A DNA stretch of 36,917 nucleotides from a virus (Duplodnaviria; Heunggongvirae; Uroviricota; Caudoviricetes). Shown here piece after piece: positions 1,111 through 33,753 of this stretch. Positions within the stretch are counted from its first letter, which is position 1. The number at the start of each line of letters is the position of its first letter. The stretch is taken from the IMG/VR virus record IMGVR_UViG_2711768076_000013, one strand, 5' to 3'. The position numbers and the translations under genes are program-made. The notes beneath the pieces were generated by a model. That model did not search any database, had not been told where the DNA came from, and worked only from the letters and a program-made list of their open reading frames with translations.

Positions 1111-1482
1111 TCATAAGTACCGATATGATTGCGGGGCCGTTATGTTATCACCTAATGAACTTAGATGAAGCGGTTGATCATAGATTTTTAGATTGCCAAT
1201 TTCTATAGCAAAGGCTTTTTCTTTGCTATGAAAATATGAGTCAAAAAATTGTTTGCTGATACCTGCGTATTGGCTTGTTTTTTCCCATACAATACTTGGC
1301 TTGTCTTCTATAACATCTGCAATGTCAAATTCAGCAACAACTTTACCGACAGGCATTGTTGAATAAATAACCACAGATTTTACATCCGGTTTTTTGAAAA
1401 TTCCTTTTCGGAATTCAAATTTCTTTGTTCCATTAAGGATTTTTTCTACATGCTCTGGGTTAATTGACAATAATACTTTCAT
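1111..1482 (-). CDS. ASCH-domain (PUA-like) protein, last gene of cargo cassette
   Basis: Start taken at MKVLLSINPEHVEKILNGTKKFEFRK (the ORF track extends to 1494); this N-terminus resembles the ASCH fold of E. coli YqfB as recalled. AT-rich. Overlaps the stop of the upstream gene, so likely translationally coupled. Confidence 0.5.
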   Translation of the reverse strand: MKVLLSINPEHVEKILNGTKKFEFRKGIFKKPDVKSVVIYSTMPVGKVVAEFDIADVIEDKPSIVWEKTSQYAGISKQFFDSYFHSKEKAFAIEIGNLKIYDQPLHLSSLGDNITAPQSYRYL

Positions 1483-2530
1483 TGACGCCACCAAGTTTAA
1501 TAATGCTATTAAACTGTTCGTTTGTTAACTTCATGATCCCCCAGTAAGCTCGCGGGGATAATCCTACTTCAGAAATAAGTTTAGCACGATTTAGTCTTTT
1601 GGGCAAAGCAAGGTTATATGTAAAGCTTATAATATATGGGTATTTTTTTGTTCTATAAAAACTTTTAAGCTCAGATTCTGTAAAAACAGAATATCTAGAA
1701 CAGTAATTTAGAAATTCTTTCTCTGTAACGAAAGAGTTTATATTTCTAACTTTTTCTACTACACATAAAGAAGTAGCAACAGAACGGTAATATGCAGGCC
1801 CTTGATTATCGGATGTTCGGTATATAACGATTATATCGTTTGGCTTCATTAATTCAACATCTGACATGCCACAAATATATACTTTTCTAATGCTATTTGC
1901 ATATGATACATCAGCAACAACGTCTGGTGACTCTGTAATTAATTTTGAGTCAGGGAATAAACGAGTATGAAATACGGGGTATATTGAAAGCAAGAATTTA
2001 TTTTCACTGCCTCTGTTATTAATAAATGGATAATCTGACAGTATATCGCCAGTAAGAGCATTACTATTCATTTCTTTTATTAGTACTCGCTCTACACCAT
2101 TTTGAGATTCTTTTACTCCAATATCTATAAAGCCATAGATTTTGAATAGTCTAATTAAGTAGTCATGTTTTTCAAAAACAGTCACATATATATTGTTAGC
2201 ATTATTATCTAGAGCGTGATCGAATATTTTTTTTAAAAATCGTTGACCACGAAGAGTTCCTTTTGGATTAAATTTAAATGTTCCAACTTTTAGATGAATA
2301 CCATCAGGAATATTTGGTTTTGTATCTTCAATGATACCCACTTCTGTTTTTAGATACAAAAAACCATCAATTTTATTTTGTTCATCATAAAGGACATATG
2401 CATAATCATTTGATTTACATTTAGAATGGAACCAATCAATAAACCCATGAGCATAATCGGATTTTAAAGAGTCAAAAAAAACATCAGAAAAATCTACTTG
2501 ATTAAAAGGTATGTATTTTAAGTTTTCCAT
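1460..2530 (-). CDS. GNAT-like acetyltransferase-fold protein with extra C-terminal domain (cargo)
   Basis: 356-aa ORF. The segment NIYVTVFEKHDYLIRLFKIYGFIDIG resembles GNAT motif B and GTLRGQRFLKKIF lies where motif A would be. Very AT-rich. Start codon 2 nt from the stop of the upstream gene. Confidence 0.45.
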   Translation of the reverse strand: MENLKYIPFNQVDFSDVFFDSLKSDYAHGFIDWFHSKCKSNDYAYVLYDEQNKIDGFLYLKTEVGIIEDTKPNIPDGIHLKVGTFKFNPKGTLRGQRFLKKIFDHALDNNANNIYVTVFEKHDYLIRLFKIYGFIDIGVKESQNGVERVLIKEMNSNALTGDILSDYPFINNRGSENKFLLSIYPVFHTRLFPDSKLITESPDVVADVSYANSIRKVYICGMSDVELMKPNDIIVIYRTSDNQGPAYYRSVATSLCVVEKVRNINSFVTEKEFLNYCSRYSVFTESELKSFYRTKKYPYIISFTYNLALPKRLNRAKLISEVGLSPRAYWGIMKLTNEQFNSIIKLGGVNESIIVN

Positions 2531-2532
2531 GT

Positions 2533-3315
2533 TTACAATCCTATTTTAAAATCACATGATAAGCAAATTGATTTAGTTTTAGATATGACGGCGAGTGTTT
2601 TCCCCGGAGTTTGACAATTAGTACAAACATTCCAATTTTTCGGTTTTCCATCAATCTTATATATGTTGGCTAAAATATCATCTAAAGGAAAAAATGTTTT
2701 CATCATGTCTATAATGCTTGCTGCATAGTTTTTCTTTGCCTCGACTAATTTTTGTTCAGGCATGTTTTTATCATTTATCAAGCAATGAACCAGGTTATTA
2801 AGAGGCTCTTGATATATCTCCTCTCGAAAAATTAGAAATGCACTTAAAAAGTCTTTACGTATTTCTTTATTATTACTTTTACCTAAGTGAATTACTTTAT
2901 TTCTTTCTTTGCGCAAAATATCATAAATTTCATTAAAGCGCGGTGAAAGATTTCGCCCACTGATACTTTGTGCTATTCTATGTAGCTCGGTTGCGTCTAA
3001 TGTTGAACATTCGAAAAATGATTTGTTTTTATAGCAGTCTTTTACTTCTTTTAAAAGTAAATAAACACTATGCTCAGCAATTATAGACTTTAGATATATT
3101 TCAGCAGAATTAAAGAGTATTACCAAGCCAGATTGAAAGAAACTCTCTTTTTCGGATATTAAGCGTTTCAGTCGTTGTTCTTCTGTTTCAGGTTGAGCTG
3201 GGGCTTGCAATAACTCAATGTCAGAATAAAAATGTAAGTAGAATGTTTTAATGAAAAACTCAAGGTTCCTTTTGGCATAAAGAAGCATCTCTTCATTGTT
3301 AGGAAGGTCTGTCAT
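2533..3315 (-). CDS. Hypothetical protein with HEPN-like R-N-x3-H motif and C-terminal CxxC..CxxC zinc ribbon (cargo)
   Basis: 260-aa ORF. Contains ERNKVIH (Rx4H with N after R, as in HEPN RNases) and a C-terminal CTNCQ...CLSCD. AT-rich. Its ATG directly abuts the cI stop (TAAATG on the coding strand). Confidence 0.4.
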   Translation of the reverse strand: MTDLPNNEEMLLYAKRNLEFFIKTFYLHFYSDIELLQAPAQPETEEQRLKRLISEKESFFQSGLVILFNSAEIYLKSIIAEHSVYLLLKEVKDCYKNKSFFECSTLDATELHRIAQSISGRNLSPRFNEIYDILRKERNKVIHLGKSNNKEIRKDFLSAFLIFREEIYQEPLNNLVHCLINDKNMPEQKLVEAKKNYAASIIDMMKTFFPLDDILANIYKIDGKPKNWNVCTNCQTPGKTLAVISKTKSICLSCDFKIGL

Positions 3316-4272
3316 TTAAATATCCTTATATATACCAAAACATTTTGCTATTACATTAATATCCGCTAATAGACATTCAAAAGTTGTACTTTCATTAGAT
3401 ACTTTTACTTTTGCAATTGGAATTCTGGTTAGATCTCTAACACTAAATTTTCCTTCGATTTCAACTAACCATTTTCCATCGGTTACTTCATCAAATGCTT
3501 TGTCTGCAAGATATACATTTCCTTCATCTACTATAGATATGGGGTTTTTCACCTTGCTGGGTAACATGGTTTTATCAAAAGGGAGATAATTTGTATCAAA
3601 CAACATACCATTTATAACTTTTTTCCGTGTGATAGCAATAATATCGCTCTTAGCGTCTTCAAAGACAGGACCATTACCGGTTGTTAGCCACATTAATGAA
3701 GCTCCGGTTTCAAGTGCGCACTGGATGATCCAATCAGCTGGAAAGGTATCTCTCATGTAACGATTGGCTAATGTGCTTTTTGAAACACCAATGTGATCCG
3801 CTAGAGCTTGCCTTGTCTTAAATCCATAGGCGATAACTATTCGCTCGATTGCCGCTTTTCCTCCTTGATTAACCTCAATGAGGCTCTCGTTCTTTCGGTG
3901 AGTATTGTTCTCATTTGGGGATTTTGTGTCTAAAGTGAGAGAATGAATCTCCTTACCATCTTTATGGTGGTTCTGTTCTGTATTATGTGTGACAGCCTCT
4001 ACTGTGTTATCGGTACCAAATGCCAACCATTCAACCGACACGCCAGTTTCCATGCTGCAGATTATGACCCAGTCGGCAGGGAAGGTATCACGAGCATATC
4101 TGTTCGCCATTGTGCTTTGGGATATCCCTAAGTGGTTACAGAATGCTTGACGTGAAGTGAAGCCATAAGCTTTCAAAATTCGGTCAATGACCTGTTGCCC
4201 TCCACGATTCTGCATGATTACAGTTTTCATTGCATCATCAACATGGCGAAATGTGATTTTGTGTGTTGACAT
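3316..4272 (-). CDS. cI: CI-type immunity repressor with two tandem N-terminal HTH domains
   Basis: 318 aa. Two diverged copies of a phage CI-repressor HTH (ILKAYGFTSRQAFCNHLGISQSTMANRYARDTFPADW and IVIAYGFKTRQALADHIGVSKSTLANRYMRDTFPADW), then a C-terminal domain resembling phage 186 CI as recalled. Divergent from the apl-like gene. Confidence 0.8.
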   Translation of the reverse strand: MSTHKITFRHVDDAMKTVIMQNRGGQQVIDRILKAYGFTSRQAFCNHLGISQSTMANRYARDTFPADWVIICSMETGVSVEWLAFGTDNTVEAVTHNTEQNHHKDGKEIHSLTLDTKSPNENNTHRKNESLIEVNQGGKAAIERIVIAYGFKTRQALADHIGVSKSTLANRYMRDTFPADWIIQCALETGASLMWLTTGNGPVFEDAKSDIIAITRKKVINGMLFDTNYLPFDKTMLPSKVKNPISIVDEGNVYLADKAFDEVTDGKWLVEIEGKFSVRDLTRIPIAKVKVSNESTTFECLLADINVIAKCFGIYKDI

Positions 4273-6165: not shown

Positions 6166-7019
6166 GCACCATCCTGAAATGGGCGGGAAATAAAACCGCC
6201 ATAATGTCCGAACTGAAAAAGCATCTTCCTGCTGGCCCGCGACTGGTTGAACCTTTCGCGGGTTCCTGTGCAGTGATGATGGAGACGGATTACCCCAGCT
6301 ATCTTGTTGCGGATATTAATCCTGATTTAATCAACCTCTATAAAAAGGTTGCTGCTGATTGTGAGGCGTTTATATCTCGTGCCAGAGCTTTATTTGAGGA
6401 CGCAAACAGGGAGGTGACTTATTACAACATAAGGCAGGAGTTTAATTACTCAACTGAAATTACTGATTTCATGAAAGCGGTATATTTCCTGTATCTCAAT
6501 CGTCACGGTTACCGTGGGTTATGTCGTTATAACAAGAGCGGGCATTTCAACATTCCATACGGTAATTATAAAAATCCGTATTTCCCTGAAAAAGAAATTC
6601 GCGCATTTGCAGAGAAAGCCCAGCGAGCAACGTTTATCTGCGCCAGCTTTGATGAAACGCTGGCGATGCTGCAGGTGGGGGATGTGGTGTATTGCGATCC
6701 GCCTTATGACGGTACGTTTTCCGGTTATCACACTGACGGCTTCACTGAAGATGACCAGTATCACCTGGCATCCGTTCTTGAACATCGGTCATCAGAAGGA
6801 CATCCGGTCATTGTTTCTAATAGTGACACATCCCTGATCCGTTCGCTGTATCGCAATTTCACTCACCACTACATCAAGGCAAAACGCAGCATTGGCGTGT
6901 CAGCTGGCGAGAGTAAATCTGCAACAGAAATCATCGCTGTTTCTGGGGCGCGCTGCTGGGTGGGATTTGATCCTTCGCGTGGCGTGGATAGTTCTGCCGT
7001 GTACGGAGTGCGTGCATGA
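6162..7019 (+). CDS. dam: DNA adenine methyltransferase (Dam-type)
   Basis: N-terminus ILKWAGNK plus the catalytic DPPY motif ([10 protein letters not shown]). Start ATG 6162 has GGAGG upstream and overlaps the previous stop (ATGA); its own stop overlaps the gene A start. Confidence 0.85.
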
Positions 7020-9430
7020 GCCATGCTGATATGAACAACTGCAGCGGCTTTAACGAGGCCGCCGCAGCATTCTCATGGAACAGCCCGAAAAAGGCTATTA
7101 ACCCTTATCTGGACCCGGCGGAAGTTGCGCCGGTTTCTGCGCTTTCAAACCTGATCACTCTGTACGCTGTCGATAACGAGCAGGAACAACTGCGTCGCGA
7201 GGCACTGAGTGATCAGGTCTGGGAGCGTTATTTCTTTAATGAATCCCGTGATCCTGTCCACCGCGAAATGGAGCAGGATAAGCTCATTAGCCGGGCAAAG
7301 CTGGCGCATGAGCAGCAGCGTTTTAATCCAGATATGGTCATTCTGGCGGACGTCAATGCCCAGCCTTCCCATATCAGCAAGCCGCTGATGCAACGTATTG
7401 AATACTTCAGCAGCCTGGGCAGGCCAAAGGCTTATTCCCGCTATTTGCGTGAGACGATTAAGCCATGTCTGGAACGACTGGAGCATGTACGCGACTGTCA
7501 GCTATCCACTTCTTTTCGCTTTATGGCAAGCCATGAAGGGCTGGACGGCCTGCTGATCCTGCCTGAAATGAGTCAGGATCAGGTGAAGCGCCTGTCTACC
7601 CTTGTCGCCGCGCATATGAGCATGTGCCTTGATGCAGCTTGTGGTGATTTGTATGCCACCGATGACGTTAAGCCAGAAGAAATCCGCAAGACATGGGAAA
7701 AGGTGGCAGCGGAAACCCTGCGTCTGGATGTTATCCCGCCTGCGTTTGAGCAACTCCGTCGGAAAAGAAACCGCCGTAAACCCGTGCCTTATGAACTCAT
7801 TCCGGGTTCGCTGGCTCGTATGTTATGCGCCGACTGGTGGTATCGGAAATTATGGAAGATGCGTTGCGAATGGCGGGAAGAGCAGTTGCGTGCTGTTTGC
7901 CTGGTCAGCAAAAAAGCATCTCCCTATGTCAGCTATGAAGCCGTGATGCATAAACGTGAGCAGCGCCGTAAGTCGCTGGAGTTTTTCCGTTCTCATGAAC
8001 TGGTGAACGAAGACGGCGACACGCTGGATATGGAAGACGTGGTAAACGCCAGCAGCAGCAACCCTGCGCATCGCCGCAATGAGATGATGGCCTGTGTTAA
8101 AGGTCTGGAGCTTATCGCGGAAATGCGCGGTGACTGCGCCGTTTTCTACACCATCACCTGTCCGTCACGTTTCCATTCCACGCTAAATAACGGCAGGCCC
8201 AACCCGACCTGGACAAATGCGACGGTAAGACAAAGCAGTGATTATCTGGTCGGTATGTTTGCTGCATTTCGTAAGGCGATGCACAAAGCCGGATTGCGCT
8301 GGTATGGCGTGCGGGTGGCTGAGCCGCATCATGACGGTACAGTTCACTGGCACCTGTTGTGTTTTATGCGCAAAAAAGATCGCCGCGCCATTACTGCTTT
8401 GTTGCGTAAGTTTGCCATTCGTGAAGACCGCGAGGAGCTGGGTAATAACACGGGACCACGCTTTAAGTCTGAGCTGATAAACCCGCGCAAAGGTACGCCA
8501 ACAAGCTACATCGCGAAATACATCAGTAAGAACATTGACGGGCGTGGTCTGGCTGGCGAGATCAGCAAGGAAACGGGTAAATCCCTGCGTGATAACGCTG
8601 AATACGTTAATGCCTGGGCGTCTCTGCATCGTGTTCAGCAATTCCGCTTCTTTGGCATTCCGGGGCGTCAGGCTTACCGTGAACTGCGATTGCTGGCTGG
8701 TCAGGCGGCAAGGCAACAGGGGGACAAAAAAGCAGGTGCGCCGGTACTGGATAACCCGCGTCTTGATGCCATCCTGGCCGCTGCTGATGCTGGTTGTTTT
8801 GCCACCTACATCATGAAGCAGGGCGGCGTACTGGTTCCCCGCAAATATCACCTCATCAGAACCGCTTATGAAATCAACGAAGAGCCGACCGCCTATGGCG
8901 ATCACGGCATTCGTATTTATGGCATCTGGTCACCCATTGCAGAGGGCAAGATCTGCACTCATGCGGTGAAGTGGAAAATGGTTCGTAAGGCCGTTGACAT
9001 TCAGGAGGCGGCAGCCGACCAGGGCGCTTGCGCCCCTTGGACTCGTGGCAATAACTGTCCCCTTGCTGAAAATTTGAACCAACAGGAGAAAGATAAATCA
9101 GCTGATGGGGACCCCAGAACGGACATTACCAGCATGGATGACAAGGAGTTGAACGATTACCTGCACAGTATGAGCAAAAAAGAGCGCCGGGAACTGGCAG
9201 CAAGGTTACGCCTGGTGAAACCGAAACGGCGTAAAGACTACAAACAGCGAATTACAGACCATCAGCGACTGCAGCTCGTGTATGAGCTGAAGTCCAGAGG
9301 ATTTGATGGCAGCGAGAAAGAGGTCGATTTACTCCTTCGCGGAGGCAGTATTCCGTCAGGAGCAGGCCTGCGTATCTTCTATCGGAACCAGCGTTTGCAG
9401 GAAGATGATCAGTGGCGGAACCTGTATTAA
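7016..9430 (+). CDS. A: Replication initiation endonuclease gpA (rolling-circle, HUH family)
   Basis: 804 aa; HUH motif in [11 protein letters not shown] and a tyrosine pair in YIAKYISK; size and position match P2/186 gene A. Confidence 0.9.
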
Positions 9431-9522
9431 TTACGCGGGTTAACAATTCGTGCTCTTAATAATACCAGGCATATCAGGCTGATGAACGTAAAAAATCGTT
9501 TTACATCAGTAAGATTATTATA

Positions 9523-9542
9523 TACTGTAAATATAAACAGTG
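9523..9542 (+). promoter_or_regulatory. LexA operator (SOS box)
   Basis: TACTGTAAATATAAACAGTG is a perfect CTGT-N8-ACAG with AT-rich spacer, about 40 bp upstream of the small ORF at 9584. Confidence 0.75.
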
Positions 9543-9583
9543 GTTATGCATACAGCATTGCGTGTGGTGTCATAGGAGGAAAG

Positions 9584-9772
9584 ATGCAGGACTATTTTTT
9601 GGAGTCTTTGAAGCTCCAGCGCATTGATTTTTTTCTTAAGCTTGTAGCGGCTAGTGAGTGTAGTGATGAAGAGAAGGGGCTGGCTCTGCAGTGGGTTTCT
9701 GAATTGACTGATGAACTCATGGCAAAAATCAGAACCCACGAATACAACCGCTCAATGGATGTCATCAGCTGA
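9584..9772 (+). CDS. Small SOS-regulated protein (possible Tum-like antirepressor module component)
   Basis: 62-aa ORF with GGAGG before ATG 9584, directly downstream of the SOS box and upstream of the DinI-like gene. Confidence 0.4.
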   Translation: MQDYFLESLKLQRIDFFLKLVAASECSDEEKGLALQWVSELTDELMAKIRTHEYNRSMDVIS

Positions 9773-9782
9773 GGTGACTTTT

Positions 9783-10016
9783 ATGCGCATTGAAATAATG
9801 ATCGATAAAGAGCAGAAGATTAGCCAGTCTACCCTGGACGCCCTTGAATCCGAGCTTTACCGCAATCTGCGCCCCCTGTATCCCAAAACGGTAATTCGCA
9901 TTCGCAAAGGTAGCTCTAACGGTGTGGAACTAACCGGACTGCAACTGGACGAAGAAAGAAAACAAGTGATGAAAATTATGCAGAAGGTGTGGGAAGACGA
10001 CAGCTGGCTGCATTAA
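9783..10016 (+). CDS. DinI-like protein
   Basis: MRIEIMIDKEQKISQSTLDALESELYRNLRPLYPKTVIRIRKGSSNGVELTGL...WEDDSWL resembles E. coli DinI as recalled (MRIEV..., C-terminal W-E-x-x-D-W). Confidence 0.75.
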   Translation: MRIEIMIDKEQKISQSTLDALESELYRNLRPLYPKTVIRIRKGSSNGVELTGLQLDEERKQVMKIMQKVWEDDSWLH

Positions 10017-10150
10017 GAAACGTTGCTGGCGTCTGAACTTGCTTCTGGCGTCAGCAAGGTTGAACAACGAGCCCTTGCGAGGCGTTAGCTCTGTAGTGCA
10101 TGTCTATGCCGCATGAGATCGCATGATCGTTTGAGGATCGTTTTTGCTAA

Positions 10151-10176
10151 GGCCCGCCAGAACTGGCGGGCTTTTG
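10151..10176 (+). terminator. Rho-independent terminator after DinI-like gene
   Basis: GGCCCGCC-agaact-GGCGGGC followed by TTTTG. Confidence 0.65.
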
Positions 10177-10220
10177 CGTAGATCATGCAGGTGCATGAAA
10201 ACCACTACATAAAGCGGGCA

Positions 10221-10239
10221 GGCGTGGCGGGGATACGAG
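10221..10239. other. Candidate cos cohesive-end sequence
   Basis: GGCGTGGCGGGGATACGAG; the first 13 nt match the 186/P2 cohesive-end sequence as recalled (GGCGTGGCGGGGAAAGCAT). Location between the replication region and the packaging genes is as expected. Confidence 0.4.
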
Positions 10240-10270
10240 CGCGCGCTCATTACTTTTATAATTCTAGGGT

Positions 10271-10276
10271 TATAAT
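10271..10276 (+). promoter_or_regulatory. Putative -10 element for the KAP NTPase gene
   Basis: Perfect TATAAT 29 nt upstream of ATG 10305, followed by AGGAG at 10293..10297. Confidence 0.35.
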
Positions 10277-10304
10277 ACGGGGCTGTCTTTCTAGGAGAAA
10301 ACAC

Positions 10305-11957
10305 ATGTCCTTAGAGTTTATCAAAGAACAGTTGTCAGATTTTATCTCATCTACAGAACCAGAAGTAATGGCTATACAGGGTGAATGGGGAATTGGTAAA
10401 ACCTATACTTGGAATACGTTCCTAAAAGATAATAAAGATAAGGTTGCATTTAATAGATATAGTTATGTCTCTCTTTTTGGTATAAATTCACTAGATTCTT
10501 TAAAGTATTCTATTTTTGAGAATGCAATTACAAAGGAATATATTGGAAATAAACCTGATTTGGAGACAGCAACAACAAACGCAAGTGGACTTTTTGAATC
10601 ATTTTCTCGAAAAGCAGCAGGTTTGTTAAAAGAAGTTCCTGTTGTAAAAAACTTCTCTACGACACTTGAAGCAATGTCATTTCTGACCGTTTCTAAAATG
10701 ATTGTAGTAATAGATGACTTAGAAAGGCGTGGCAAAAATTTAGATGTTAAAGATGTTTTAGGGCTAGTATCTCTATTAAAAGAGCAGAAGGATTGTAAGG
10801 TGGTTCTATTGCTTAACAATGGCACAGCTAGTATGGAGGATTATTCTACTTATAAAGAAAAGGTCATTGATAGAGATATCACTTACAATCCAACACCAGA
10901 AGAATGCGCAGATATAGCCTATAAAGGTGATTCTCATGTTTATAACTTGTTAAGTAAATATTCCATTTCTTTAGGTATCAAGAATATTCGAATCTTAAAA
11001 AAGATAGAACGTTTTTTCGTGTCCTTAATACCAAATATTATAGGTGATGTTGAGACAATTTCAAATGAAGTTGCGCATTCATTAACTCTGTATTGTTGGA
11101 GCCATTACGGATTTTCTCCAGAGGGAGATGTGCCATCACTAGAATATATTAGGGGAGTGAGGAATATATATACTTATAATGACAAGGAAGAAGGCCATGA
11201 GAAAATCTGGCTTAATACCTTGCTTAAATATGGATATAGAAAAACGAATGATCTTGATGAGGTTCTTATTGATATGGTTAGATATGGCTATCTTGATAAG
11301 AGCAGTTTCCAAAGACAAATAAGCCTAAGGAATGAGGAGATTACGCGTGATAATAAACGAGGTTCCTTATCTGAGGCATGGCAGTTCTTTCATAATTCAT
11401 TTGATGACAATCAAAATCAGGTTGTTGACAAGCTATATCAAGCGGTGGTTGATGGGATGAAGTATGTGACTCCAAGTGATTTAGATAATGTTGTCGGACT
11501 ATATAGGGATTTCGGAGAGAATGCTAAGGCGAGTGAATTGATTGAACAGTTTATTAATTATGGTAACGATGCTCTAAAGGAATATGTTCAATCTATTTAT
11601 GTGAATGTTCATCCCGTAAGAGATACTGAGTTGTTGTCAAAAATTCAAGCCTATTCTAAGATTATAAATATTGATGGTTCAATATATGATGTTCTTAAGA
11701 AATTATCAGGTCAGAATGGTTGGTCTGATAGACATGAGGAAATATTGGATGCTGCTTCAGTAGATGACTACTATCAATTATTTAAAAATGTCATTCTTGA
11801 TGGTGGTGATTCAATAATAGCTACGGCGCTTAAATTCGGAAATTTTAGTAATGGTTCTGATAGAATGAATCGTATAGGGAAAAAGGCAAGGGATGCCTTG
11901 ATAAGAATTGGAGATGAATCGGCGATTAATAAAATGCGTGTAAGGCGATTTTTGTGA
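10305..11957 (+). CDS. KAP-family P-loop NTPase (candidate anti-phage or abortive-infection protein)
   Basis: Walker A in QGEWGIGKTYTW and Walker B-like MIVVIDDLERRG, the KAP-family signatures. Strongly AT-rich compared with flanking phage genes. Sits at the P2 tin/old hotspot position between gene A and the portal gene. Confidence 0.7.
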   Translation: MSLEFIKEQLSDFISSTEPEVMAIQGEWGIGKTYTWNTFLKDNKDKVAFNRYSYVSLFGINSLDSLKYSIFENAITKEYIGNKPDLETATTNASGLFESFSRKAAGLLKEVPVVKNFSTTLEAMSFLTVSKMIVVIDDLERRGKNLDVKDVLGLVSLLKEQKDCKVVLLLNNGTASMEDYSTYKEKVIDRDITYNPTPEECADIAYKGDSHVYNLLSKYSISLGIKNIRILKKIERFFVSLIPNIIGDVETISNEVAHSLTLYCWSHYGFSPEGDVPSLEYIRGVRNIYTYNDKEEGHEKIWLNTLLKYGYRKTNDLDEVLIDMVRYGYLDKSSFQRQISLRNEEITRDNKRGSLSEAWQFFHNSFDDNQNQVVDKLYQAVVDGMKYVTPSDLDNVVGLYRDFGENAKASELIEQFINYGNDALKEYVQSIYVNVHPVRDTELLSKIQAYSKIINIDGSIYDVLKKLSGQNGWSDRHEEILDAASVDDYYQLFKNVILDGGDSIIATALKFGNFSNGSDRMNRIGKKARDALIRIGDESAINKMRVRRFL

Positions 11958-11964
11958 TTTTTAT

Positions 11965-11985
11965 AGGGGTGATTAACCCCTTTTT
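11965..11985. terminator. Bidirectional terminator between convergent KAP NTPase and portal genes
   Basis: AGGGG-tgattaa-CCCCT hairpin flanked by T-run on one side and A/T-rich sequence on the other. Confidence 0.5.
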
Positions 11986-11987
11986 AT

Positions 11988-13019
11988 CTAATTTAATGAG
12001 TAATCATTAAATGCTATGATTTTTTCATTTAGCCAAGTATTAATTTCTATAAGCCTTTTTTGTAACGGAATTAATTCATTTCGGACAAAGACTTTACTAG
12101 CCTTTTCCACATCCCCAAACCCCCCAACATTATTCGGCATTATCCCCATCATTTGCGGCGGCACGCGGTGTGCCGCCATCATGTCGTCCCGGCTCACGTT
12201 CTTGATATTCAAAAACTCATCCTTCGCTGCGACCTCTGACAACGGGATAATCTGAAGCCCGTCCTTTTTGCCGTTAGGCGAGTACATAAACAGGTTGCGG
12301 AAGTTGCCCGGACCTTTGGCGCTTTTCATCGCGTTGCGGAGGTTGTTCACATCCTCTTGGTTTTGCGCAGCATCGGTCATATACATGATGAAGCCTGCAT
12401 GGCTGCCGTTAATGTAATACTTACGGCGGAACAACGTGGCGGACTCGTTGAGCAGAGCTGACGGAATGGCAGAAAGATAACCGGGCAGGCCGTAGATCTC
12501 CTGGTTGATATCCGGTTCCATCAGATGAAAGATGCTGCCTTTCGTGAACTGATACGGCTGCGTAGTCATGCCGTATTGCACAAACCAGTAGGTATCCAGG
12601 TCTAACCCGCGTCGGGTGTATTTTGCCAGCGCAGGTTCAAGGGCGATAACTTCACCGAAGCGGTTCGTGCGTTTCTCCAGGTAAGCGTTACCAAATACCA
12701 GATAGTCCTGCACAAAACGTGAAAAAGCCTGCTGGCTGAGAAGCGGGTGAGGGATGTAGGTACTGGTCAGAATGTTGCATTTCACCGCAATTGGTGAACT
12801 GTGATGCACGGCAGCGCGGAAGGTTCGCGCCAGTCCGTCAAAACTCACTGGCGGCTCATACCAGCGATCTGTCTGTACGCATTCTACATAGTCCAGCAGT
12901 TCGCGGCGGTCCAGAACAGGAACGGGATCGCCAAAGCTGAATGCTTCGGCTGAAGTCTGGCTTTTGTGCTGAATCTGGTTCGTCGACACAGCGCGGTTCT
13001 TCTTACTCTTTCCCATCAA
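11988..13019 (-). CDS. Q: Capsid portal protein (P2 gpQ homologue)
   Basis: 343 aa, matching P2 gpQ in size; overlaps the terminase gene as in P2. Confidence 0.85.
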   Translation of the reverse strand: MMGKSKKNRAVSTNQIQHKSQTSAEAFSFGDPVPVLDRRELLDYVECVQTDRWYEPPVSFDGLARTFRAAVHHSSPIAVKCNILTSTYIPHPLLSQQAFSRFVQDYLVFGNAYLEKRTNRFGEVIALEPALAKYTRRGLDLDTYWFVQYGMTTQPYQFTKGSIFHLMEPDINQEIYGLPGYLSAIPSALLNESATLFRRKYYINGSHAGFIMYMTDAAQNQEDVNNLRNAMKSAKGPGNFRNLFMYSPNGKKDGLQIIPLSEVAAKDEFLNIKNVSRDDMMAAHRVPPQMMGIMPNNVGGFGDVEKASKVFVRNELIPLQKRLIEINTWLNEKIIAFNDYSLN

Positions 13020-29104: not shown

Positions 29105-32100
29105 TAATAACCTGCGCCTGCAGGTCATTCTTAATGCGGTTGACAAACTCACCCGCCCATTCCGTGCTGCACAGGCCAGTTCGAAAGAGCTGGCTGGCGC
29201 AATCAGAAACTCCCGTGACGCATTAAAGCAACTCAATCAGGCGGGTAACAGCCTGGAAAAATTTCGCAAGCTGCAGGCCGATAACAAGAAGTTAGGCGAC
29301 AGGCTGAACTATGCCAGACAGAAGGCTAATTTGCTTAGCTCTGAGCTGGAGGCGATGGAACAACCATCACAACGGCACCTTGTGGCTTTAGGTCGGCAAA
29401 CGCTGGCAGTCCAACGCCTGGAAGAACAACAAAAATATTTGCAGAAGCAAACGGCGCTTGTGCGTGCAGAACTGTACCGGGCGGGAATTTCTGCGAAAGA
29501 TGATGCGGGAGCAACTGCCCGTTTAGCCCGTGAAACATCACGTTATAACCAGGAATTGTCGAAACAGGAGGCGCGCCTGAAGCGACTGGGGGAAGCTCAG
29601 CGCAGGATGAATGCGGCGCGTGCCAGTTATGCCCGTTCGCTGGAGGTGCGCGATCGTATTGCAGGAGCCGGAGCCACCACCACGGCTGCAGGGCTGGCAA
29701 TGGGTGCGCCAGTGATGGCGGCAGTAAAAAGCTATACCAGCATGGAAGATGCCATGAAAGGTGTGGCAAAGCAGGTCAATGGTCTGCGTGACGATAATGG
29801 CAACCGCACTGCACGTTTTTATGAAATGCAGGATGCCATCAAGGCTGCCAGCGAACAGTTGCCGATGGAAAACGGTGCGGTGGACTTCGCTGCACTGGTT
29901 GAAGGTGGGGCGCGCATGAACGTCGCAAACCCTGACGACAGCTGGGAAGACCAGAAACGTGACCTGCTGGCCTTCGCCAGCACGGCAGCAAAGGCGGCAA
30001 CAGCCTTTGAGTTGCCAGCGGATGAACTGTCAGAAAGTCTGGGGAAAATCGCCCAGCTCTACAAAATCCCTACCCGCAATATTGAACAGCTCGGCGATGC
30101 GCTGAACTATCTGGATGATAACGCCATGTCGAAAGGGGCAGACATCATTGATGTGATGCAACGTCTGGGCGGTGTGGCTGACCGTCTGGATTATCGTAAA
30201 GCGGCGGCGCTGGGTTCCACCTTCCTGACACTGGGCGCTGCGCCGGAGGTTGCAGCCAGTGCAGCAAACGCGATGGTGCGTGAATTGTCCATTGCCACCA
30301 TGCAAAGCAAGAGTTTCTTTGAAGGAATGAATCTGCTGAAACTCAATCCTGAGGTGATTGAAAAGCAGATGACGAAGGATGCGATGGGAACCATCCAGCG
30401 CGTGCTGGAGAAGGTGAACGCACTGCCGCAGGATAAGCGCCTGTCTGCCATGACCATGTTGTTTGGTAAAGAGTTTGGCGATGATGCGGCGAAACTGGCA
30501 AACAACTTGCCGGAACTGCAGCGCCAGCTAAAACTGACAGCGGGCAATGATGCGCTCGGTTCGATGCAGAAAGAATCCGACATTAACAAGGACTCACTTT
30601 CTGCGCAGTGGTTGCTGGTTAAAACCGGAGCGCAGAACACCTTCAGCAGCCTGGGCGAAACGCTGCGCCAGCCGCTGATGGATATTCTGTACACGGTGAA
30701 AAGCATCACGGGGGCGTTGCGCCGCTGGGTGGAAGCTAACCCGGAACTGACAGGCACACTGGTGAAAGTAGCGGCTGTTGTGGCTGCGGTTACCGTAGGC
30801 CTCGGCACCTTAGCGGTGGCGTTGGCTGCAGTGCTGGGGCCGCTGGCAGTGATCCGTCTGGGATTCTCTGTGCTGGGTATCAAAACGTTACCTTCCGTTA
30901 CGGCAGCAGTAACACGAACCAGCAGCGCGTTGTCCTGGCTGGCTGGCGCACCACTTGCACTGCTGCGACGCGGGCTTGCTTCAACGGGCAGCGCAGCGGG
31001 TTTACTTACTGCGCCGTTGTCGTCTTTGCGCCGCACGGCATCACTGACGGGAAATGTCCTGAAAACTGTAGCAGGTGCGCCGGTTGCACTTTTGCGGTCT
31101 GGATTATCCGGTTTACGTGCTGTTGCTGTGATGTTTATGAATCCACTGGCAGCACTACGCGGCGGGCTGACTGCCGCAGGCGCGGTGCTACGAGTACTGG
31201 CATCCGGTCCGCTGGTGATGCTGCGCGTTGCCCTGTATGCCGTGTCTGGTCTGTTAGGTGCTCTGCTCAGTCCGATAGGTCTTGTGGTTACTGCACTGGC
31301 GGGTGTGGCGCTGGTTGTCTGGAAATACTGGCAACCCATCACCGCGTTTCTCGGTGGTGTGGTGGAGGGATTCAAAGCAGCGGCAGGTCCCGTCAGTGCC
31401 GCGTTCGAACCACTTAAGCCTGTGTTCCAGTGGATTGGCGATAAAGTGCAGGCGTTGTGGGGCTGGTTTACTGATCTGCTGACACCCGTTAAGTCGACTT
31501 CTGCCGAACTGCAGAGCGCAGCGGAAATGGGGCGACGATTCGGGGAGGCGTTGGCGGAAGGGCTGAATATGGTTATGCATCCGCTGGACTCCCTCAAATC
31601 CGGCGTATCCTGGTTGCTGGAGAAACTCGGCGTTGTCAGTAAAGAGGCCGCAAAGGCGAAACTACCGGAAAGTGTGACGCGTCAGCAACCTGGGACGGTG
31701 AATACAGACGGTAAAGTGATGATGCCATCGGGTGGTTTTCCGTCATGGGGATATGGCTTTGCGGGGATGTATGACAGCGGCGGCTATATCCCGCGCGGGC
31801 AGTTTGGCATCGTCGGTGAAAACGGGCCGGAAATTGTTAACGGCCCGGCAAATGTGACCAGCCGGAGAAATACAGCTGCACTGGCTGCCGTTGTTGCCGG
31901 AATGATGGGCGTTGCTGCCGCGCCAGCAGAGCTTCCACCGTTGCACCCTTTGGCACTTCCCGCGAAAGGCGGCGAAGCGATGGTGAGTCGTGCAGCCACT
32001 GTGCCGCCCGTTCACCGGATTGAGGCACCGACGCAGATCATCATTCAGACGCAGCCAGGACAAAGTGCGCAGGATATTGCGCGGGAGGTGGCACGCCAGC

Positions 32101-32174
32101 TTGATGAACGTGAACGCAGGCTGAAGGCAAAAGCCAGGAGTAACTACAGCGATCAGGGGGGATACGACGCATGA
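29097..32174 (+). CDS. T: Tail tape measure protein T
   Basis: 1025 aa; coiled-coil N-terminal half, hydrophobic repeat-rich middle; follows the chaperone genes. Confidence 0.85.
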   Translation: MSDNNLRLQVILNAVDKLTRPFRAAQASSKELAGAIRNSRDALKQLNQAGNSLEKFRKLQADNKKLGDRLNYARQKANLLSSELEAMEQPSQRHLVALGRQTLAVQRLEEQQKYLQKQTALVRAELYRAGISAKDDAGATARLARETSRYNQELSKQEARLKRLGEAQRRMNAARASYARSLEVRDRIAGAGATTTAAGLAMGAPVMAAVKSYTSMEDAMKGVAKQVNGLRDDNGNRTARFYEMQDAIKAASEQLPMENGAVDFAALVEGGARMNVANPDDSWEDQKRDLLAFASTAAKAATAFELPADELSESLGKIAQLYKIPTRNIEQLGDALNYLDDNAMSKGADIIDVMQRLGGVADRLDYRKAAALGSTFLTLGAAPEVAASAANAMVRELSIATMQSKSFFEGMNLLKLNPEVIEKQMTKDAMGTIQRVLEKVNALPQDKRLSAMTMLFGKEFGDDAAKLANNLPELQRQLKLTAGNDALGSMQKESDINKDSLSAQWLLVKTGAQNTFSSLGETLRQPLMDILYTVKSITGALRRWVEANPELTGTLVKVAAVVAAVTVGLGTLAVALAAVLGPLAVIRLGFSVLGIKTLPSVTAAVTRTSSALSWLAGAPLALLRRGLASTGSAAGLLTAPLSSLRRTASLTGNVLKTVAGAPVALLRSGLSGLRAVAVMFMNPLAALRGGLTAAGAVLRVLASGPLVMLRVALYAVSGLLGALLSPIGLVVTALAGVALVVWKYWQPITAFLGGVVEGFKAAAGPVSAAFEPLKPVFQWIGDKVQALWGWFTDLLTPVKSTSAELQSAAEMGRRFGEALAEGLNMVMHPLDSLKSGVSWLLEKLGVVSKEAAKAKLPESVTRQQPGTVNTDGKVMMPSGGFPSWGYGFAGMYDSGGYIPRGQFGIVGENGPEIVNGPANVTSRRNTAALAAVVAGMMGVAAAPAELPPLHPLALPAKGGEAMVSRAATVPPVHRIEAPTQIIIQTQPGQSAQDIAREVARQLDERERRLKAKARSNYSDQGGYDA

Positions 32175-32656
32175 TGATGGTGCTGGGATTGTACGTGTTT
32201 ATGCTGCGCACCGTTCCGTATCAGGAACTGCAGTATCAACGCAGCTGGCGACATGCGTCAAACAGCCGGGTAAACCGTCGTCCGTCCACGCAGTTTCTGG
32301 GACCGGACAACGACATGCTGACGCTTTCCGGTGTTCTTATGCCGGAGATAACAGGCGGCAGGCTGTCGTTGCTGGCACTGGAGCAGATGGCAGAACAGGG
32401 GAAAGCATGGCCCCTGATTGAAGGTAGCGGCACGATTTACGGCATGTTTGTGATTGAGGGACTGAATCAGACTAAAACGGAGTTTTTCCGCAACGGTATG
32501 CCGCGCAGGATTGAGTTCACCCTGTCGCTAAAACGGGTGGATGAATCCCTGTCCGATATGTTCGGTGATCTCAGTACTCAACTGAATAATCTGCAGGACA
32601 CGGCAACGTCTGCCTTAAGCGATATCAGTAAAACGGTGGGAGGGCTGCTGTCGTGA
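32171..32656 (+). CDS. U: Tail protein U
   Basis: 161 aa; position and size as P2 gpU. Confidence 0.8.
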   Translation: MMMVLGLYVFMLRTVPYQELQYQRSWRHASNSRVNRRPSTQFLGPDNDMLTLSGVLMPEITGGRLSLLALEQMAEQGKAWPLIEGSGTIYGMFVIEGLNQTKTEFFRNGMPRRIEFTLSLKRVDESLSDMFGDLSTQLNNLQDTATSALSDISKTVGGLLS

Positions 32657-33753
32657 ATTTCAGCTCTGAACTGCTTAACAAAGGCAACAAAACTCCGGCA
32701 TTCAGCATCAGTATTGAAGGCAGGGATATAACCACTGTGCTGGACAACCGCCTGATGGGGCTTACGCTGACGGATAACCGGGGCTTTGAAGCGGACCAGC
32801 TTGATCTGGAGCTGGACGACGCTGACGGAAAAATCGTGCTGCCGCGCCGTGGTGCAGTCATTACGCTGGCGCTGGGCTGGAAGGGGCAGCCGCTTTTCCC
32901 GAAAGGGGCATTCACGGTGGACGAGATTGAACACACTGGCGCACCGGACCGCCTGACTATCCGGGCGCGAAGTGCTGATTTTCGGGAAACCCTGAATACC
33001 CGCCGTGAAAAATCGTGGCACAAGACCACAGTTGGGGAAGTGGTGAAGGAAATAGCCGCGCGGCACAAGCTGAAGATGGCACTGGGTAAAGACCTGTCGG
33101 ATAAGCCCGTGGAGCATATAGACCAGACTAATGAGAGTGACGGCAGTTTTCTGATGCGGCTGGCGCGCCAGTACGGTGCTATTGCATCGGTGAAAAATGG
33201 CAATCTGTTATTCATCCGGCAGGGTCAGGGTAAAAGCGCCAGCGGTAAACCACTGCCGGTGATCACTATCACACGTAAGGACGGCGACAGTCACCGCTTT
33301 ACCCTGGCAGATCGCGGAGCTTACACGGGCGTAATTGCCAGCTGGTTGCATACCCGCGAACCCGCGAAGAAAGAAAGCACTACGGTGAAGCGTAAGCGCA
33401 GGACTAAGAAGCAGAAGAAAGAGCCGGAAGCGAAGCAGGGCGATTACCTGGTGGGGACGGATGAAAACGTGCTGGTACTTAATCGCACCTATGCTAATCG
33501 GAGTAACGCCGAACGGGCAGCGAAAATGCAGTGGGAACGCCTGCAACGCGGCGTTGCGTCATTCTCGCTACAACTGGCGGAAGGGCGGGCAGATCTCTAC
33601 ACGGAAATGCCAGTGAAAGTCAGTGGCTTTAAACAGCCGATAGATGATGCGGAATGGAGCATTACGACTCTGACGCATACCGTCAGCCCGGATAACGGTT
33701 TTACGACCAGTCTGGAGCTTGAAGTGAGGATTGATGATTTCGAAATGGAATGA
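32653..33753 (+). CDS. D: Tail protein D (late gene D)
   Basis: 366 aa, last gene of the tail operon as in P2. Confidence 0.8.
   Translation: MNFSSELLNKGNKTPAFSISIEGRDITTVLDNRLMGLTLTDNRGFEADQLDLELDDADGKIVLPRRGAVITLALGWKGQPLFPKGAFTVDEIEHTGAPDRLTIRARSADFRETLNTRREKSWHKTTVGEVVKEIAARHKLKMALGKDLSDKPVEHIDQTNESDGSFLMRLARQYGAIASVKNGNLLFIRQGQGKSASGKPLPVITITRKDGDSHRFTLADRGAYTGVIASWLHTREPAKKESTTVKRKRRTKKQKKEPEAKQGDYLVGTDENVLVLNRTYANRSNAERAAKMQWERLQRGVASFSLQLAEGRADLYTEMPVKVSGFKQPIDDAEWSITTLTHTVSPDNGFTTSLELEVRIDDFEME

Follow-up and report, generated by a model that had tools for sequence, protein, structure and literature searches.

KAP P-loop NTPases (Pfam PF07693) were reportedly set out as a family by Aravind et al. 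in 2004, and PifA of plasmid F is the 'P' of their name. Here we describe a KAP-type gene at positions 10,305 to 11,957 of a stretch of 36,917 nucleotides (the window; IMG/VR record IMGVR_UViG_2711768076_000013), a 186/P2-like prophage of Escherichia coli. The product of 550 amino acids (aa) is in our judgement probably an anti-phage defence protein of the single-protein, sensor-switch type. Among the described systems, PifA excludes T7 by abortive infection and is reported to be free of transmembrane helices (PMC13001434). Tmn, of the YobI family (Gao, 2020), needs its ATPase motifs for defence and assembles into a decameric membrane pore through which Mg2+ is exported (PMC13001434). EF_KAP and three metagenomic KAP fusions protected Enterococcus in a Walker-B-dependent and non-abortive manner (PMC12632615), and the DefensePredictor preprint reports seven validated P-loop NTPase systems; no KAP or NTPase system is mentioned by Vassallo (2022). 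For Reve, a single-gene system of the P4 hotspot, plating ratios of Drexlerviridae ranged from 1e-2 to 2.5e-6 (bioRxiv 10.64898/2026.02.27.708500), and a Reve-like P4 protein annotated "AAA_22/NB-ARC" stands at rank 11, with 110 loci, in Tables S1B and S2B of Rousset et al. (2022) (PMC9122126).

The same study defined the cos-proximal hotspot between gpA and gpQ (PMC9122126). This A-to-Q region of P2-like prophages is a documented defence hotspot (PMC9122126; PMC9519451), which also holds non-defence cargo such as partition systems and a cytolethal distending toxin (PMC9122126). In Table S5A of that paper, the protein described here (WP_053891075) is catalogued as "hypothetical + DinI + KAP_NTPase", and KAP_NTPase occurs at least 69 times, in some cases with S1/HSDR_N, HEPN_LA2681, PIN_12 or DNA_processg_A (PMC9122126). 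Its Walker A string is absent from the table of cloned systems (PMC9122126), so the NTPase is taken as not being among the eight P2 systems cloned by Rousset et al. An earlier reading of the window from its letters alone (the sequence-only reading) had called the protein uncharacterised; it was not unnoticed, having already been listed as a KAP_NTPase. The identity of the protein, the hotspot and the expectation of a defence role were thus anticipated by published catalogues, and a distant relative (Reve) has been validated. The remaining interest lies in a very large family with full-length conservation and no effector, in the mechanism of soluble KAP proteins, and in the two cargo slots that flank cos.

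The protein and its family

The coding region contains the following features.

10305..11957, plus strand: coding sequence of the 550-aa soluble KAP-type P-loop NTPase, with ATG at 10305 and stop at 11957
10380..10403, plus strand: Walker A codons (GEWGIGKT, aa 26-33), from the translation
10704..10727, plus strand: Walker B codons (VVIDDLER, aa 134-141), from the translation; DDLER conforms to the KAP-type DDL(D/E)R motif
11115..11684, plus strand: aa 271-460, the most variable and fastest-evolving part of the protein

The open reading frame (ORF) and the two motifs named in the sequence-only reading are borne out by the translation and by RefSeq, and the motifs fit the KAP patterns for Walker A (GxxGxGK[ST]) and Walker B (hhhhDDL[DE]R). 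Assignment to the KAP family stands as well: KAP_NTPase matches with 30.2 bits against a gathering cut-off of 20 (E 3.6e-7), aa 8-193 aligning with profile positions 6-224 of 293. The Pfam profiles ATPase_2, AAA_16, NB-ARC and AAA_22 match below threshold, NB-ARC with 14.5 bits against a cut-off of 23.5, so that the protein does not qualify as a STAND/Avs member at the sequence level. In an alignment of 30 sequences with identities down to 41%, G26, W28, G29, G31, K32, T33, D137, D138, E140 and R141 are invariant in all 30. The same is true of N171 and R229, the putative sensor-1 and sensor-2 positions, and of T507, F511, G512, E538, S539, N542 and R545 in a C-terminal module.

The PADLOC check proposed with the sequence-only reading gave a phage-defence candidate, PDC-S49, as the best match (hidden Markov model, HMM, PDLC05031; E 3.2e-27). 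The alignment joins aa 6-428 to profile positions 9-440 of 624 and leaves positions 441-624 unmatched. PDC-S49 is also matched by the family members P0106, P0044 and P0073, and the literature search found no paper that names it. PHROG 4740, of unknown function, matches aa 1-550 (E 5.5e-125) and is in effect the same family; both PDC-S49 and PHROG 4740 are computational groupings. Nothing meaningful was found in NCBIfam, and a sequence search of the PDB with the family profile returned just two marginal matches (E about 0.1). The family itself is very large. A database clustered at 90% identity yielded 1025 matches, and among 1.84 billion representatives clustered at 50% identity there are 5413 matches at E <= 1e-3, of which 1714 reach E <= 1e-30. 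Many gammaproteobacterial members of 550-560 aa align end to end at 42-45% identity. The best 150 representatives are mostly 546-633 aa long and align over nearly the whole profile, a few shorter ones lacking one end, and no fused extra domain occurs among these 150. Members are found in Proteobacteria, Nostoc, temperate phages and phage-plasmids.

An AlphaFold2 model was built from the 30-sequence alignment (mean predicted local distance difference test score 83.3). It contains a five-stranded P-loop core (strands 21-26, 51-56, 132-137, 165-171 and 190-194) and a helical lid (aa 198-268), and is all-helical from there to residue 550. The protein can be divided into an NTPase core (aa 1-195), a lid (aa 196-270) and an alpha-helical repeat region (aa 271-550), and an alpha-helical region C-terminal to the NTPase is typical of KAP proteins. 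Between the two Walker motifs, the model predicts soluble helices for aa 57-131, including a low-confidence, partly disordered loop (aa 98-118). The structural analysis confirms the Walker-motif NTPase fold that had been expected, and by the model the ATPase core and lid are AAA+/STAND-like and ORC/Cdc6-like. With the full model, Foldseek returned ORC1 (E 3.5e-5) and, over 630 columns, Avs4 in complex with phage portal (8dgf; E 6.7e-5), together with NLRP7/9, Apaf-1, RdrA and a STAND-TPR protein, which places the NTPase module near STAND/Avs at the level of the fold; the best fold matches are initiator and transposition AAA+ proteins in their DNA-bound form (Cdc6, ORC1/4/5, TnsC and MuB). The transmembrane segments typical of Tmn and, though not universally, of KAP proteins were not found: there is no transmembrane helix, and the highest Kyte-Doolittle value in a 19-residue window, 1.35, belongs to the Walker B strand. 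The suggestion that structure prediction might uncover a C-terminal effector domain was not borne out either. Pfam, the model and the fold search reveal no nuclease, TIR, protease or other enzymatic effector fold anywhere in the protein; no winged-helix or other DNA-binding domain was found, and the C-terminal region consists of helical repeat only.

Identity to distant family members is unevenly distributed along the protein:

NTPase core: 55%
Lid: 44%
aa 271-365: 31%
aa 366-460: 29%
aa 420-462 (hypervariable): 12%
aa 461-550 (C-terminal module): 45%

From this pattern, aa 271-460 are proposed as a recognition surface.

Position, boundaries and distribution of the gene

The prophage carries an integrase, a CI-type repressor, CP76/Fil-type early genes, A and a DinI-like gene, followed by portal, terminase and capsid genes. 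Around the NTPase gene the order is:

7016..9430, plus strand: replication endonuclease (P2 A homologue; ORF, RefSeq, Phage_GPA in related loci), the fixed left flank of the variable region
Between gene A and the DinI-like gene: hypothetical protein of 62 aa
9783-10016: DinI-like gene, upstream of the NTPase gene
10097..10247 (about 150 bp): conserved cos-region block, separating A-side cargo from the NTPase cassette, whose left boundary is at about 10248
About 10153-10177, plus strand: upstream hairpin GCCCGCCAG-aac-CTGGCGGGC followed by UUUU, within the cos block
10221..10239: cos cohesive-end core GGCGTGGCGGGGATACGAG, by homology
10257-10262 and 10271-10276, plus strand: two TATAAT strings, candidate -10 elements from the sequence, a good -35 being absent
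10294..10298, plus strand: Shine-Dalgarno sequence AGGAG, 6 nt 5' of the ATG
11965..11987, plus strand: intrinsic terminator AGGGGTGATTAACCCCT with T-run, the right cassette boundary, immediately followed by the portal stop codon at 11988
11988..13016, minus strand: portal gene (P2 Q / 186 W homologue; RefSeq, Phage_portal in related loci), the fixed right flank, with terminase next

The cos core aligns with P2 cosL 1-19 (GGCGAGGCGGGGAAAGCAC) and with 186 cos 1-19 (GGCGTGGCGGGGAAAGCAT), and positions 10189-10233 are 82% identical to the P2 right-end/cos junction. It lies 66 bp 5' of the NTPase ATG; in all eight P2-like loci examined (three from Salmonella and five from E. coli, the window and its identical RefSeq copy included) a cos core is found about 70-120 bp 5' of the NTPase-family gene. 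The surrounding block is near-invariant in an alignment of five loci that differ in their upstream cargo and represent two divergent NTPase clades, and it is carried by 1277 of 5426 complete E. coli genomes. Several GCATG(A) copies occur in the cos-flanking block at 10100-10200 (GTGCATGTCTATGCCGCATGAGATCGCATGATCG ... ATCATGCAGGTGCATGAAAAC). GCATG-rich sequence likewise flanks cos in P4 constructs (supplements of the P4-hotspot papers), and these copies may serve terminase as recognition elements.

In P2 and 186, the interval from cos to the portal gene measures about 170 bp and contains a terminator as its sole content, and P2 tin/old lie at 30684-33380, on the A side of cos between A/orf91 and cosR (33575-33593), reading leftward. 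By this comparison the NTPase cassette (about 10248-11987) fills the cos-to-portal interval; it does not occupy the tin/old position, because cos at 10221-10239 lies between the A side and the gene. The sequence-only reading had placed the gene at the tin/old hotspot. The documented hotspot between A and the portal gene is correct, as gene order, the adjacent cos and variability among related prophages all indicate, but the gene sits on the other side of cos from tin/old. In six other E. coli prophages, with the cos block at about 3501-3647 of each locus, the same slot holds six different cassettes, all oriented rightward:

Prophage 1: TIGR02391 protein
Prophage 2: TIGR04255 protein, regulator and hypothetical protein
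Prophage 3: DUF4145 protein
Prophage 4: GTP pyrophosphokinase and small ORFs
Prophage 5: AIPR protein
Prophage 6: three hypothetical proteins

The A side of cos carries independent cargo, for instance an HNH endonuclease, a ComF-family pair or hypothetical proteins. Read from these sequences, the P2-family A-to-Q hotspot is made up of two cargo slots that are split by a conserved cos block.

The NTPase gene is a horizontally acquired, self-contained cargo cassette. As the sequence-only reading had noted, it is far more AT-rich than its flanks, with a GC content of 0.338 against 0.53 in gene A, 0.497 in the portal gene and 0.504 in the whole window; at third codon positions the value is 0.263 against 0.573 in gene A. 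GC skew is strongly positive over the gene (0.16-0.36 at 10501-12000) and well above that of the remaining window, and this excess of G over C on the coding strand may be a further sign of foreign origin. Bracketing by terminators was likewise confirmed. The downstream hairpin (11965-11981) is called by the terminator scan and folds with a free energy (dG) of -10.8 (z -2.2), and homology with other loci picks up directly after this terminator in the alignment. The upstream hairpin reaches -24.6 kcal/mol in the RNA fold (z -5.07; 0 of 200 shuffles as good), is unlisted by the terminator scan, and likely terminates the early transcript from A to DinI. The claimed Shine-Dalgarno sequence is present, and its GGAG is kept in the E. 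coli-clade cassettes. The claim of an own consensus -10 fared less well: TATAAT does occur, twice, and the region GGGTTATAAT (10257..10276) is kept in four E. coli-clade cassettes of the alignment, but the string is statistically unremarkable, since there is no -35 and no scan call, and the 12 promoter-like sites in 9400-12200 compare with a chance expectation of 10.0 +/- 3.6.

RefSeq places the start at the 550-aa form (WP_053891075.1, "P-loop NTPase fold protein"), and the locus of E. coli UTME-8 is 100% identical. The ORF listing also contains a longer in-frame ORF of 590 aa, which begins at ATG 10185 and crosses the cos core, and for E. coli AR434 RefSeq gives a 614-aa form of the same protein (WP_023147874, locus coordinates 6809-8653). 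Since the aligned homologues (29 of 29) all begin at MS(L/V/I) after AGGAG, the upstream extension is probably a mis-called start in both.

The gene is present in 131 of the 5426 complete E. coli genomes (about 2%), always on the chromosome, and its carriers are mostly human clinical isolates of one lineage. It is the only cargo gene in the window, in agreement with the single-gene locus of the sequence-only reading, and in 17 other genomes. Most carriers, 105 of the 131, have it in one decayed P2-like prophage remnant next to ybjL (for example E. coli AR434, NZ_CP029122.1 3286124-3301776), with the order 883-aa S1/HsdR_N protein, cos, NTPase, portal, truncated terminase, D fragment and ogr; the NTPase ORF is intact and 99.7% identical in these 105 genomes. 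A clade of about 42% identity occupies the same slot in Salmonella, beside A-side genes for proteins of 72 and 280 aa, and in E. coli AF5, beside a gene for a LA2681 HEPN protein. Elsewhere, members adjoin an AbiJ_NTD4 / PDC-S32 protein in a Cronobacter lambdoid prophage and PDC-M02A/B in a marine chromosomal islet, lie near a RelE-like toxin gene in Burkholderia phages, and occur once in a Pseudomonas integrase island. Full-length homologues of 27-28% identity are found in SSU5-like phage-plasmids of about 110 kb from E. coli and Klebsiella; in p09EL50 (NC_018651.1 86469-98154) the gene lies after that for a ParA-like ATPase and before that for a DnaB-like helicase, with a GNAT/DUF1778 toxin-antitoxin pair nearby. 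Plasmids of Rhizobia, Agrobacterium, Pantoea and Nostoc carry members too. Across the 10 neighbourhoods examined there is no conserved partner gene.

A second AT-rich island (1111-3315, minus strand, GC 0.29-0.35) is flanked by the genes for the integrase (1-1032) and the CI-type repressor (3316-4272). It comprises three ORFs:

1111-1494, minus strand: 127 aa, PADLOC PDC-M11B (E 4.9e-48)
1460-2530, minus strand: 356 aa, PADLOC PDC-M11A (E 2.4e-130), no Pfam match
2533-3315, minus strand: 260 aa, weak DUF3644 / HEC-08 / NsnC matches, no Pfam match

Because its ORFs match PDC-M11A and PDC-M11B, this island is a second candidate-defence cargo island of the prophage. The repressor ORF (minus strand) codes for 318 aa, compared with 210 aa for the CI gene in a Salmonella relative, and contains two Phage_CI_repr stretches in Pfam, the best at aa 140-203; it could be an over-extended call or an N-terminal duplication.

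Proposed function and alternatives

By analogy, a defence role is likely from the match to PDC-S49, the homology to Reve, the existence of other defending KAP NTPases (PifA, Tmn, EF_KAP), the foreign composition and the slot context. The family resides in cargo slots of mobile elements, amid abortive-infection-type annotations and PADLOC candidate matches. The NTPase would be expressed from the prophage and would protect the lysogen against other phages. Its variable helical region may bind a phage-made protein or structure, upon which the NTPase would exchange or hydrolyse nucleotide and oligomerise, as in STAND proteins of the Avs/NLR type and as has been suggested for KAP proteins. Arrest of the infection by the assembled complex would come next, and is the least certain step. 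Two outputs seem about equally plausible: the NTPase could use ATP to sequester or remodel the phage target directly, or a host-mediated abortive collapse could follow, as with PifA of the F plasmid. A more specific and rather unlikely idea is that of an immune NTPase that needs no effector and acts through its own ATP-driven assembly on phage protein or DNA. Such an enzyme would load onto or sequester its target in the manner of ORC/Cdc6/TnsC, with aa 461-550 as output surface and aa 420-462 as determinant of specificity, by a logic distinct from that of Avs/NLR proteins, Tmn and PifA.

Several observations weigh against a defence function or the mechanism outlined above. The WP_053891075 family was catalogued and not cloned by Rousset et al. 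(2022), and no phenotype is on record. The Reve-like P4 protein was cloned in 2022 and had no activity on a panel of eight phages (Table S2B; PMC9122126), so the activity of the family, if any, may be narrow. Similarity to Reve stops at residue 243, the C-terminal approximately 300 residues of Reve being unalignable with the NTPase, and homology is therefore not full-length. A close kinship to PifA was considered and rejected, as the two proteins resemble each other only in their motifs (BLASTP E 0.007 over 22 residues at Walker A and E 0.016 at Walker B; hhalign probability 21%, E 1e-3). Fold matches to Avs/NLR proteins have template modelling (TM) scores of just 0.2-0.3, and, since an effector domain is absent, the arrest of infection is a step that we purely infer. 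The promoter scan made no call at either TATAAT and found no acceptable -35. Retention of the gene in the decayed prophage could reflect recent clonal expansion instead of selection, and no recognisable defence neighbours were found in the Shewanella and Vibrio chromosomal islets that contain members.

The missing effector would be provided if the NTPase were the sensor of a multi-gene system whose nuclease effector is A-side cargo, that is, an S1/HsdR_N, LA2681 HEPN or PIN_12 protein. The HsdR_N-domain protein just 5' in the 105 remnants, the HEPN protein paired with the divergent AF5 clade, and the co-occurrences in Table S5A of Rousset et al. all fit this model. However, the 105 cases represent one clonal remnant, the partners vary between loci, and in the window and 17 further genomes the NTPase is the sole cargo. 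Where A-side partners do occur, the cos block and a strong terminator stand between them and the NTPase gene; they are absent beside homologues in lambdoid prophages, islands, phage-plasmids and Burkholderia phages, and the top 150 family representatives are all stand-alone and unfused. We therefore consider a multi-gene system very unlikely. Equally, we regard it as very improbable that the protein is an accessory of the ORC/Cdc6/TnsC/MuB type that serves replication, cos packaging or maintenance of its own element and not defence. Such a role would agree with its best fold matches, with the abutting cos and with the phage-plasmid homologue between a ParA-like ATPase and a DnaB-like helicase. 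Yet P2 and 186 package and replicate without it, only 131 of the approximately 1277 E. coli genomes with the cos block have the gene, and unrelated cassettes replace it in the same slot. Its foreign composition, the homologues in chromosomal islets devoid of phage or plasmid genes, and the failure to find a winged-helix or other DNA-binding domain also speak against this role.

The gene might instead be a selfish or functionless moron that is shuffled by cos recombination and confers no benefit, or one unrelated to phages. This would account for the lack of a phenotype and of an effector, for the weak promoter evidence, and for the presence of non-defence cargo (partition systems, cytolethal distending toxin) in the same hotspot (PMC9122126). 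A functionless gene is hard to reconcile, however, with a 550-aa architecture and catalytic motifs conserved as a whole over at least 1714 clusters at 50% identity (E <= 1e-30), or with an ORF that stayed intact within a remnant whose terminase decayed. The family is a PADLOC defence candidate and has a validated relative in Reve, and we consider the moron explanation quite improbable. A single-protein defence system thus remains our preferred explanation. If the NTPase is active, one compact gene of 1.7 kb, drawn from a very large family, would suffice for defence, and with about 2% of complete E. coli genomes as carriers it might be relevant to which hosts therapeutic phages can infect. The two slots flanking cos, for their part, bear on cassette exchange between P2-like phages and P4 satellites.

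Comparison with known systems

Like the NTPase gene, P2 tin/old are AT-rich lysogenic-conversion cargo of the A-to-Q region next to cos, and Old is also an ATPase-containing single protein. They are leftward-oriented genes on the A side of cos, the NTPase gene a rightward-oriented one on the Q side, and there is no sequence relationship. Avs proteins have a tripartite layout of effector, NTPase and repeat sensor, of which the NTPase has the latter two; its core starts at about residue 8, and the effector is absent. Tmn resembles the NTPase in being a single-gene P-loop NTPase of E. coli mobile elements and is often grouped with KAP. It has two transmembrane helices inside the P-loop domain, whereas aa 57-131 of the NTPase are soluble at the corresponding place. 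Among PADLOC models at E <= 1, only PDC-S49 and PDC-S20 match the NTPase, with no match to tmn or Avs models. As the transmembrane helices and a match to the tmn HMM are both absent, Tmn is excluded as a close relative.

PifA (compared from the F plasmid record NC_002483) shares with the NTPase the motifs G-WG-GKT, hhV-DDL-R and Y-(E/Q)K(V/I)I, and its VVMDDLDR aligns with VVIDDLER. It too is a single protein on a mobile element in which a recognisable effector is absent. PifA differs in its size of 741 aa, in its pifC-pifA operon and in a much longer insert between Walker A and Walker B.

Reve (translated from Dataset E1 of the preprint) is a single soluble protein of 586 aa and thus similar in size. 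BLASTP aligns it with aa 21-243 of the NTPase only, at 26% identity (E 1e-12); hmmsearch with the profile of the family gave no match to Reve, the comparison ending at HMMER's bias filter. The motifs GEWGvGKT, Y(V/I)S(L/V)(F/L)G(I/L)NSL, (V/I)IDDLER and NIRI are common to both. Reve likewise matches PDC-S49 (E 2.5e-11), and the human ORC ATPase module is among the top fold matches of both models. While Reve is carried by P4 satellites and the NTPase gene by a helper-type prophage, both are AT-rich cassettes that directly adjoin a P2-type cos, the Reve construct being flanked by P4 cos, and each is a single gene in a cos-adjacent hotspot of the P2/P4 type. The phenotype measured against Drexlerviridae belongs to Reve and not to the NTPase family. 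Because it is a complete sensor-switch NTPase without a recognisable effector, the protein described here would lend itself well to learning how soluble KAP NTPases, PifA and Reve among them, stop phages.

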